A stretch of 64,000 bases of DNA from Eledone cirrhosa (GCA_964016885.1 OZ024760.1:15686001-15750000); one strand, 5' to 3'; positions 25,594 through 63,178 are shown, counted from the first letter of the stretch. Translations and numbers: made by a program. Notes: generated by a model from the letters alone, not told the origin.

Positions 25594-28500
25594 ATGGCTA
25601 CACCTTACCGATTAGGCAGCAGTTACTTGGAACAACAATATGACTGTAGTAGGAACTTTGTGGGAAGACATGATGAGAGAGAAAAACTGAAAATATTTAT
25701 CAAGAATGAAAACATTCAATTAATACAAGTTTATGGACTGCCGTATGTTGGTAAAACTAGACTTATCAAAGTTGTAAGTAATCAAAGATTTCTGTTTTTT
25801 ACCTTAACCCTTTAGCATTTAAACCGGCCGTATCTGGCCAGAATTCCCTCACTTCTTTCTGTACAAACTGGCTGTAACTGGCCGCTCAACTGATGTTAAG
25901 ATATTATTTTCAAAATGGATAATATCAAAATGTCATAGATTTCTGTGAGATATTTATGTAAGATAAAGCCTTTCCTGTGAAAATGTAATAGCAAATATAG
26001 AGTAATGTAAATGCTTAATTGATTCTTTCCTGAGACATTCTAACCAAAATACAATTTTCATAATACCACAGGTCTGTCAAGAGTTAAAAGATGAAATTAA
26101 ACCTGAAATACTTCATACAAAACACATCCATATTTCTAAAGATGACAGTTGGTCAGATATTTTCAACAAGTATGACACGTTTGCTAAATGTCCAAGTGCT
26201 AGCAATACTAAATGGAAAATTTGTATTTTTGATGATTTCCAGAACATTCAAGAAATTTTTATTTCAAAATTCCAAGATCTTTGTGACAATGACTTTCCAC
26301 TAGAGAGAGATCTGAAAATCATTCTCATATTAAGTGGTGGGGAACCATTTCAATTTGATGGCATCAGTTTTGGGAAATGTAAAGTGAGTCCATTGCTCTT
26401 AGATGAGGGACAAGTTCTTTTCTCTCGATATTCCCACATTGTGGAGGACAATACTAAGAAACAACAAATACACAACATTATCAGACACACATGTGGTCTA
26501 CCTGGGCTTCTTATTGACTTTGCACAAAAAATCTCACAATTTCAACCTGATTTCTCTTTTAATGACATTTACAAAATGATTTGTGATGACACCAACATCA
26601 GTGACTGGCTGGAAGAATGTAAAGTTAACCAGCGCCCTGTTAAGCAAGAAATGGACAAGTATCTTTCTCAACTTTCACACAAACAACAAGAAGCTATAAA
26701 AGTACTGTCTTATTTTCCTGGACAATTTGGTATTGAGGAAGTTGTTGAAATGACCAACTCTTCCAGTTACCCAGCTTCCAAGACAACTGTCCTGATGCCT
26801 CTTGTGGAACAAGGTTTGATTAATTCAGATTTAGAGTTTGAGAATTTCCAAGTGCAAGAGTTAATACGTGCGATTGTTAGTCAACAGATTGACAATGTAT
26901 CAAGCAATGACTTGATTAAACTCAAGTTCTCAAATATAATTGGGAAAAGTTTGATGAAGGCTGAAGATATTTACCATAAAGGTTTCATATTGGAATCTCT
27001 TGGAATTATGAAAAAGAACTGGGAAAATATTTCCTATATGATGAAGAAAGGGATTGAAGCTCCTTCAGATGGTCAGACATATGCAATTTATTATGACGTA
27101 AGTTTTATCTTTAACAACTTCTAAGTTCTTGTGTCTTATATATGTTACATGTCACATCTTAGTTTGTCTTATGATATGTCTTCTTCAGTCTATACTATAT
27201 TAACAGTGGCTCAGTGATTCCTGTGACACATCTTATGTCTTAAGACAGTCTTATATATGTTACATGTCATATTTTAGTTTGTCCTATGATATGTCTTCCT
27301 CAGTCTATACTATATTAACAGTGGCTCAGTGATTCCTGTGACACATCTTATGTCTTAAGACAGTCTTATATATGTTACATGTCATATCTTAGTTCGTCCT
27401 GTTATATCTTCCTGTCATGGATAGAATGCTTTGTGGTGTTCACTTCTGCTTCCTCTCTCTGCACTGAGTTTAACCCTTTAGCATTTACACTACCCTATAT
27501 TTACTATTGTATTTTTGTGGTAAAGGTTTTTACCTCACACATATTGGGGCTACTACTACAAACACATAGAGACCATTACTACTACACCGTCTAAACCCAT
27601 GCTAACATGGAAGATAGACATTAAACGATGATGATGATGATATTGTGACCACCACTACTACTACTACAATTACATATAGAGCTACTACACAACTACACAT
27701 ATATAAACTACCACTGCTACATTTATAGAGACTACACTACATATATACAGACTACTACTACTACTACTACTACTCTTCATATACTACACATGCCTTGCTT
27801 TTACACATACATAGCAATACCATTTCATTTAACCCTTTATCATTTACTCACTATTGTATTTTTATAATAATTGTTTCTACTTTTGGCACAAGGCCAGCAA
27901 TTACCCCAGTACATTACTGGTACTATATTTAACCTCACATAATAATTGTTTCTACTTTTGGCACAAGGCCAGCAATTACCCCAGTACATTACTGGTACTT
28001 TATTTAACCTCACATAATAATTGTTTCTACTATTGGCACAAGGCCAGCAATTACCCCAGTACATTACTGGTACTTTATTTTATCGACCCCCGTAAGGATG
28101 AAAGGCAAAGTTAACCTCAGCAGGATTAACCTCACTGTGTTCAGACCTAGAGAAGGATGGGCTCGACCTAGTTTTAAGTGCCTAAGATACTCCAAATATC
28201 ATGTAACACACTGGGCACTCATATGACTACATCCGTATTTATAGGTCAATAATATCTTCCTCAGTCTATCCTATGTAAATATAGACTTAGTGGCTCACAT
28301 GACTCATCTGAAACAACTTCTAGTGTTTTACATATTCTATTGATATTACATATTCTATCCTGTTTAAAATTTTATAATTTTAAAATTGCTTATGATGATG
28401 ATCATTGTTTCATGTGGAAGGTGATGATGATGAAGATGATCATTTAATAATTTTCAGGATAATTACATATCATTAACATTTTTCCAGATAATAACATATC

Positions 28501-63178: not shown

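Follow-up and report, generated by a model that had tools for sequence, protein, structure and literature searches.

A tandem pair of predicted NB-ARC-type STAND-TPR genes in Eledone cirrhosa whose exon 2 has likely been re-homogenised by gene conversion in three octopod lineages

We analysed a 64,000-nucleotide stretch of the Eledone cirrhosa genome (GCA_964016885.1 OZ024760.1:15686001-15750000), hereafter the window, with positions counted from its first letter. It carries two genes, A and B, which are probably an old tandem NB-ARC-type STAND-TPR pair. Ectopic gene conversion has likely re-homogenised their exon 2 on separate occasions in three octopod lineages. The encoded proteins are likely intracellular sensors that carry no effector and that combine a common switch core with two distinct TPR grooves, predicted to bind peptides.

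Gene models were assembled using splice signals. A and B lie head-to-tail on the + strand, 22.7 kb apart, each with 10 coding exons and only GT-AG introns. Exon phases are identical and neither gene has an internal stop, confirming the two intact 10-exon genes with matching phases proposed in the initial annotation. The models are as follows.

25594-39989, + strand: gene A, NB-ARC-type STAND + TPR, 857 aa, 10 coding exons, has homologues
48283-63178, + strand: gene B, paralogue of A, 849 aa, 10 coding exons
25594-25773, + strand: A exon 1, VGR motif and Walker A
26072-27097, + strand: A exon 2 (1,026 nt), Walker B, helical domain, winged helix and first arm helices; core converted unit
30727-30883, + strand: A exon 3, dS to B 0.38, below later exons
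32807-32954, + strand: A exon 4, TPR
33263-33372, + strand: A exon 5, gene model
33834-33947, + strand: A exon 6, gene model
35372-35515, + strand: A exon 7, gene model
36717-36828, + strand: A exon 8, gene model
38590-38854, + strand: A exon 9, TPR, most divergent exon
39672-39989, + strand: A exon 10, C-terminal helices, CxxC and stop
48283-48462, + strand: B exon 1, gene model
51385-52410, + strand: B exon 2, gene model
52939-53095, + strand: B exon 3, gene model
54951-55098, + strand: B exon 4, gene model
56628-56737, + strand: B exon 5, gene model
57583-57693, + strand: B exon 6, gene model
58958-59101, + strand: B exon 7, gene model
59865-59976, + strand: B exon 8, gene model
61322-61586, + strand: B exon 9, gene model
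62882-63178, + strand: B exon 10, gene model

Upstream of the pair, the window holds the exons of a metallo-beta-lactamase/beta-CASP gene (935-10900, + strand; Pfam Beta-Casp E 8e-6), which we take to resemble Integrator subunit 9. Neighbouring frames on the - strand are presumably methionine aminopeptidase-, peptide-hormone GPCR- and radical-SAM HemN-like (L009, L012, L013).

Over exons 1-2 the A and B products differ at 8 of 402 residues (R6Q, L43I, K70I, I73R, L169S, E172D, A390P and Q395R) and the coding sequences at 10 of 1,206 nucleotides. Amino acid identity is 65% in exon 3, 71% in exon 4, 58% in exon 5, 61% in exon 6, 66% in exon 7, 50% in exon 8, 41% in exon 9 and 49% in exon 10 (55% for exons 3-10 combined). 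The initial annotation had counted about 8 differing residues in exons 1-2 by hand and estimated the identities of exons 3, 4, 8 and 9, and its counts were correct. Up to 217 consecutive codons are identical, against a permutation maximum of 34 in 5,000 shuffles. The flanks of exons 3-10 match between the genes at 8-18 of 40 nucleotides, with one repeat-rich exception (29 of 40). Intron 8 of both genes contains an ACC/CCA-rich low-complexity array of about 1 kb (37543-38557 and 60104-61290), directly 5' of exon 9. A C-terminal CxxC motif (39820-39900 and 63060-63110) is present in 12 of the 12 family members displayed and is a possible metal site.

The near-identical intron DNA that had been reported to flank exons 1-2 was also confirmed. 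A and B differ at 1 of 39 nucleotides before the ATG, at 6 of 288 in intron 1 and at 3 of the first 250 in intron 2. The shared segments, with the older part of B's intron 1, are these.

25555-26125, + strand: shared block 1, A copy, from the exon 1 acceptor to about nt 54 of exon 2; partner 48244-48817
48244-48817, + strand: shared block 1, B copy, closing with an exon-2 stub (48764-48816) that a 10-nt deletion has deprived of its acceptor
48816-51360, + strand: likely older intron 1 of B, opening with a copy of a repeat element of about 220 nt (83% identical, matching flanks), other repeats after it
26048-27350, + strand: shared block 2, A copy, exon 2 and about 250 nt of intron 2, 99.0% identical to B
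51361-52663, + strand: shared block 2, B copy, partner of A 26048-27350
21459-21756, + strand: shared upstream non-coding block of A, 90-94% identical to that of B, likely a promoter or 5' UTR exon
44217-44696, + strand: shared upstream non-coding block of B, carrying an insertion of about 180 nt

The upstream block lies about 4.1 kb 5' of each ATG and had no other match in the window or in 14 further genomic stretches. Intron 1 of A measures just 298 nt, so the shared block spans the whole of it. Intron 1 of B measures 2,922 nt and is made up of the shared block, a dead 53-nt stub of exon 2 that lacks an acceptor, and an older intron. Behind the stub, the repeat element found at the start of intron 1 recurs in B as a second copy (83% identical) between the same short flanks; some 2.3 kb of mixed repeats then lead up to the genuine exon 2. 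We infer that B's older intron 1 persists and that the tract copied from A rejoined there; in E. cirrhosa, a single A-to-B tract would have run from exon 1 into exon 2 and ended in this old intron. Because 83% identity is the background level of the repeat family, it is the flanks that carry the argument for a shared site.

Synonymous divergence (dS) between A and B is 0-0.005 in exons 1-2, 0.38 in exon 3 and 0.8-1.8 in exons 4-10; the difference between exon 3 and exons 4-10 is significant (p 0.011). The upstream block has diverged by 6-10%. Synonymous and intron sites are homogenised together with the coding changes (dS 0.004, introns 1-2%), a result that holds for E. cirrhosa only. Thus, the spread of dS across exons and the upstream block points to exchange of several ages with a 5' bias.

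The initial annotation had pictured a ligand-binding half that diversifies. Instead, dN/dS of exons 3-10 is about 0.33, with no signal of positive selection. By this sequence measure the old TPR half evolves under purifying selection, and its divergence mostly reflects age. Within the converted block, the 10 nucleotide changes (9 nonsynonymous, 1 synonymous) gave no evidence of positive selection and fit neutrality (p 0.40). Measured by ortholog path lengths, the TPR half evolves only about 1.3-1.8 times faster than exon 2. Paralogue-diagnostic residues fall 13 versus 3 on the helices that we ourselves assigned as groove-lining (p 0.011, post hoc). Variable sites of four O. sinensis A loci show no excess on groove helices (54/149 versus 50/147), and strictly fixed A/B differences, which concern very few sites, are split 3 versus 1 between groove and other positions.

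If exons 1-2 were converted after an old duplication, as the initial annotation held, the two parts of the genes should give opposite trees, the converted part grouping by lineage and exons 3-10 by paralogue. With exon 2 as the converted part, this is what we obtained (AU p 1e-5 to 2e-4). The exon-2 tree comprised 18 rows and the exons 3-10 tree 15, with 3 truncated rows left out; AU tests used 10 rows with the E. cirrhosa paralogue on C23 as outgroup. The other species were represented by protein sequences, on which intron positions were inferred. In the exon-2 tree, E. cirrhosa A and B pair with each other (99-100), as do the two Argonauta genes (100/100); the Octopus rows are 85-99% alike over the N-half yet form no resolved clade. 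In the exons 3-10 tree the A type stands apart from the B type (100/100). An A clade was rejected for exon 2 (p 1.4e-5), and for exons 3-10 so were an E. cirrhosa A+B grouping (p 8e-6) and an Argonauta pair (p 2.4e-4). Counts of fixed columns in 7 rows agree: 105 lineage-fixed and 0 paralogue-fixed of 341 columns in exon 2, and 2 lineage-fixed and 8 paralogue-fixed of 446 in exons 3-10. Thus, A and B had already been duplicated when Argonauta separated from the other two lineages, and at least three lineages have each homogenised exon 2 on their own.

In Argonauta, 4 of 342 exon-2 residues distinguish the two genes, which are 52% identical in exon 1 and 41% identical after exon 2. Differences occupy 19 positions in residues 20-58 and 4 in residues 61-402, and are dense again from residue 405. 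O. sinensis A and B are 67-72% identical in exon 1 and 87-89% in exon 2. The Batillaria pair, which has adjacent locus tags and one member without an N-terminus, shows no homogenised block. Taken together, recurrent ectopic gene conversion has very likely homogenised exon 2, and NTPase-based trees of A/B-type genes mislead on orthology.

What do these genes encode? Both have a Walker A motif (GxxxxGKT, exon 1) and a Walker B motif (hhhhDD, exon 2). The GxP motif reads GLPG at residues 202-205, which we take to be a GLPL-type motif; its proline is the sole invariant column in 43 family rows. At the positions that we assume to be MHD and the sensor-1 Thr/Arg, octopod proteins have degenerate sequences (VQE, LSGG) and crinoid relatives retain IHD and SR, so the switch may be atypical. 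Pfam TPR_12 scored above its cut-off in 4 of 4 full-length octopod homologues. Pfam NB-ARC scored 15.1-21.8 bits in 4 of 4 octopod proteins, against a cut-off of 23.5 that the Pinctada and Glandiceps relatives pass; Pfam NACHT had no match at E<=0.5 in the same 4 of 4.

Folds were predicted for O. sinensis stand-ins, which are about 73% identical to E. cirrhosa in exon 2. The model of P0025 (residues 1-454, 43-row alignment; pLDDT 87.9, pTM 0.82) shows a P-loop NBD followed by a helical domain and a winged helix. Its top 10 Foldseek rows were all NB-ARC proteins, including NRC3, Apaf-1, CED-4 and other resistosomes. Superposition gave Z 22.6 and 20.4 to plant NLRs, the first being a wheat resistosome (rmsd 3.7 over 304 residues), and 18.1 to CED-4. 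A full-length model of P0016 (pLDDT 63) contains a TPR superhelix and has the STAND-TPR protein 6mfv as its top Foldseek match. These models and the TPR_12 matches uphold the STAND/NB-ARC plus TPR architecture first read from the sequence, and A and B are predicted to be NB-ARC-class STAND-TPR proteins.

No N-terminal effector domain is present. About 21 residues precede the NTPase in A and B, an in-frame stop lies 4 codons 5' of the ATG, and RefSeq O. sinensis models use the same start Met. A hidden RHIM exon 5' of A or B was searched for in 20000-25593 and 40000-48282, whose three + frames contain no xQxG core. Across the family, the start motif could be recognised in 34 rows, and in 33 of them no more than 41 residues precede it, so the absence of an effector is typical.

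The family itself reaches well beyond octopods. A profile search of 1.84 billion representatives returned 45 proteins at E<=1e-30. The relatives named for 14 of the 20 looked up come from Argonauta, O. bimaculoides, gastropods (Batillaria twice, Patella, Haliotis twice, Lottia), bivalves (Solemya, Pecten, Pinctada, Mercenaria), a hemichordate and a crinoid. The cephalopod system envisaged at the outset is therefore too narrow. An exon-2 search among longer proteins gave 14 matches in 2,938 candidates, all octopod and uncharacterised. A RHIM-like N-terminal motif precedes the STAND domain in two limpet proteins, P0047 (Lottia) and P0197 (Patella isoform X1); Patella isoform X2 is without it. 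Pfam RHIM scored 19.1 bits in Patella (cut-off 20, E 0.0009) and 10.8 bits in Lottia, and a RHIM pattern was matched by 2 of 204 collected proteins.

E. cirrhosa has two further paralogues. One, at C23 14.927-14.948 Mb, looks intact and has the same 10-exon layout, near-identical exon sizes and about 29% exon-2 identity. The other, from C24 23.378 Mb onward, has about 31% exon-2 identity, and some of its exons were traced. Searches with exon 2 or exon 9 found no additional close copy of A or B in the genome, which sets a lower bound on copy number. The A type is present once in E. cirrhosa and once in Argonauta. O. vulgaris has 12 A-type records on a single contig, and no B type of this species was among the matches. 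In O. vulgaris and O. sinensis the A type (P0001-P0032) is expanded, with nearest neighbours that form an exon-wise mosaic, in a set where many models are without exons 4-6 and some records are possibly haplotype duplicates. Mean identity among A-type copies is 94-95% in exons 1-3 and 76-81% in exons 6, 8 and 9.

STAND proteins generally act through a scheme in which a ligand releases the switch, nucleotide is exchanged and an oligomer forms. In A and B, autoinhibition would be lifted when a peptide or protein binds as ligand in the TPR groove, and the released switch would then permit ADP/ATP exchange followed by oligomerisation. As no effector is attached to A or B, signalling would pass through a separate partner protein. 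Whether the products are immune or cell-death sensors is, by analogy, evenly balanced. Such a role is suggested by the fast evolution of the family, by an A-type array in which exons 6, 8 and 9 are most variable, and by the limpet RHIM-like motif, the best hint of a link to cell-death signalling.

The same conversion history could have befallen STAND-TPR regulators or scaffolds with developmental, ciliary or trafficking roles, a possible though somewhat unlikely alternative. The family's usual lack of an effector domain would suit such proteins, as would the low copy number in E. cirrhosa (4 loci) and the housekeeping-like neighbouring genes; the nearest solved TPRs by sequence are kinesin light chains, and a bivalve member is auto-named nephrocystin-3-like. 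However, exon-2 identity to O. sinensis or O. vulgaris is only 72-75%, a sign of fast evolution. The A-type array of these two species, the limpet RHIM-like motifs and the best fold matches, which are resistosomes and apoptosomes, also argue against non-immune proteins.

We then asked what sets the limits of the converted tract. The initial annotation had spoken of a uniform switch module, but judged by sequence the homogenised unit is the 1,026-nt exon 2 and not the domain. The STAND module spans residues of about 22-332 and exon 2 residues 61-402, so that the tract is without the P-loop, takes in about three extra helices and extends about 65 residues beyond the winged-helix domain. The P-loop exon lies outside the tract in Argonauta (52%) and O. 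sinensis (67-72%). Exon 2 is also the sole long uninterrupted homology between the genes, the other exons being 110-318 nt long and set between unalignable introns. Gene conversion needs roughly 200 bp of identity and drops sharply near 80% identity in yeast and rodents (excerpts of PMC3924818). Tract ends at exon edges, and an exon 2 that alone is far above about 200 bp, fit a mechanical account, and exon architecture is probably the main determinant of the tract. However, exon length alone is insufficient because in E. cirrhosa the short exon 1 and upstream block were homogenised and exons 9-10 (265-318 nt) escaped. Conversion may be seeded in exon 2, with occasional spread to exon 1, exon 3 and the upstream block, and tracts that would wipe out the A/B difference in the TPR exons are probably also removed by selection. 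Such selection likely contributes, given the conserved TPR halves (dN/dS 0.33) and the diagnostic residues on groove helices (13 versus 3).

A stronger, adaptive version holds that selection keeps the switch module uniform for A/B co-oligomerisation and that the sensors diversify under positive selection. Conversion does persist in three lineages with both TPR halves intact, exons 9-10 do escape while shorter 5' segments are converted, and the same argument has been made for TLR1/TLR6 (PMC2077338) and for long-lasting mammalian pairs (PMC2720389), as far as the available parts of these papers go. Yet a uniform module sits badly with a P-loop exon that belongs to the same domain and has diverged in Argonauta and O. 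sinensis, and with tract ends at exon edges rather than domain edges. Nor do the neutral-like changes after conversion (9 of 10 nonsynonymous) and the TPR dN/dS of about 0.33 bear out positive selection. We consider this version unlikely, and selection specifically for A/B co-oligomerisation equally so.

Recurrence could be dispensed with if the 5' half of B had been replaced once by a duplicated piece of A. Blocks 1 and 2 indeed have similarly low divergence (1-2%) and B's intron 1 is rearranged. This is contradicted at the family level, where Argonauta and Octopus were homogenised independently, and E. cirrhosa itself has tracts of several ages (upstream block, exon 3, older intron-1 element) and a 217-codon identical run. 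A one-off chimera is thus very unlikely, although a single replacement could still describe the latest E. cirrhosa event. Assembly collapse or polishing, which might hide further collapsed copies given that the E. cirrhosa genome shows only these two close ones, is very unlikely, because differences between the copies are scattered and include structured indels, the mosaic is replicated in the separately annotated Argonauta and O. sinensis genomes, and the contigs of one run, which may be the assembly source, hold 0.81 of the words of B 51300-53200.

Among known systems, the best structural matches of the A/B-type N-terminal module, as modelled, are Apaf-1, CED-4 and plant NLR resistosomes. 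These proteins bear CARD, CC or TIR effectors and WD40 or LRR sensors. In A and B, by contrast, the NTPase is preceded by about 21 residues and the sensor is a TPR. Archaeal 6mfv shares the STAND plus TPR sensor arrangement; it is prokaryotic and 15% identical, a likeness in architecture only.

For the evolutionary pattern, the closest parallel is TLR1/TLR6, tandem receptor paralogues in which per-species conversion homogenises the signalling part and the rest groups by orthologue, as in A/B. They are, however, membrane LRR-TIR receptors of proven function with a tract described by domains (excerpts of PMC2077338), whereas the A/B tract is one exon, often without the P-loop. BMP8A/B, DDX19A/B and TUBG1/2 show the same long-lasting exon-wise mosaic of concerted and divergent evolution with no clear domain match, but are non-immune and have tracts that cover several exons and introns (available text of PMC2720389). 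The NB-ARC-TPR candidate receptors of Ectocarpus have the architecture of A/B, with short TPR exons and birth-and-death evolution; as portrayed in the sections seen of PMC3341825, their 24 genes undergo TPR exon shuffling and diversifying selection, unlike A/B with their fixed exon number and homogenised NB-ARC exon. The coral NACHT/NB-ARC repertoire also includes invertebrate NBD proteins with TPRs, often in tandem pairs or triplets, but comprises about 500 loci with many effector domains, and the excerpts of PMC4083563 do not mention a conversion pattern.

What is new here is exon-bounded partial concerted evolution in an uncharacterised NB-ARC-TPR family; the pattern as such is known from TLR1/TLR6. 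Searches of open-access main text listed no paper on six octopus locus ids, the family or the locus. A and B fall outside the NACHT-LRR class of NLRs, having no NACHT match and a TPR rather than an LRR sensor; bona fide animal NLRs are defined as NACHT plus LRR (part of PMC3879445). A mollusc survey counted NLRs in this way and reported one in Aplysia, and the accessible portions of this survey (PMC9334734) and of PMC8195603 do not describe an octopod NB-ARC-TPR family. With an octopod NB-ARC below the Pfam cut-off and automatic names only in the records examined, the family would escape NACHT plus LRR counts.

The boldest reading, which we regard as doubtful, is an octopod paired effector-less STAND system. 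Recurrent conversion would maintain a single NB-ARC core that can be swapped between two ancient TPR specificities and the members of a growing mosaic array in O. vulgaris and O. sinensis; the different sensors would build one mixed resistosome-like oligomer, and through its limpet members the family would be tied to RHIM amyloid cell-death signalling. If true, the paired system would be an unrecognised molluscan intracellular immune receptor family overlooked by NACHT-LRR surveys. Returning to the reading we favour, an old pair with a recurrently converted exon 2, the family is a small and tractable candidate set of intracellular sensors in octopus, to which the limpet members add a RHIM lead. 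As a natural experiment replicated in three lineages, the locus can also be used to ask whether concerted evolution confined to a domain results from selection or from exon architecture.
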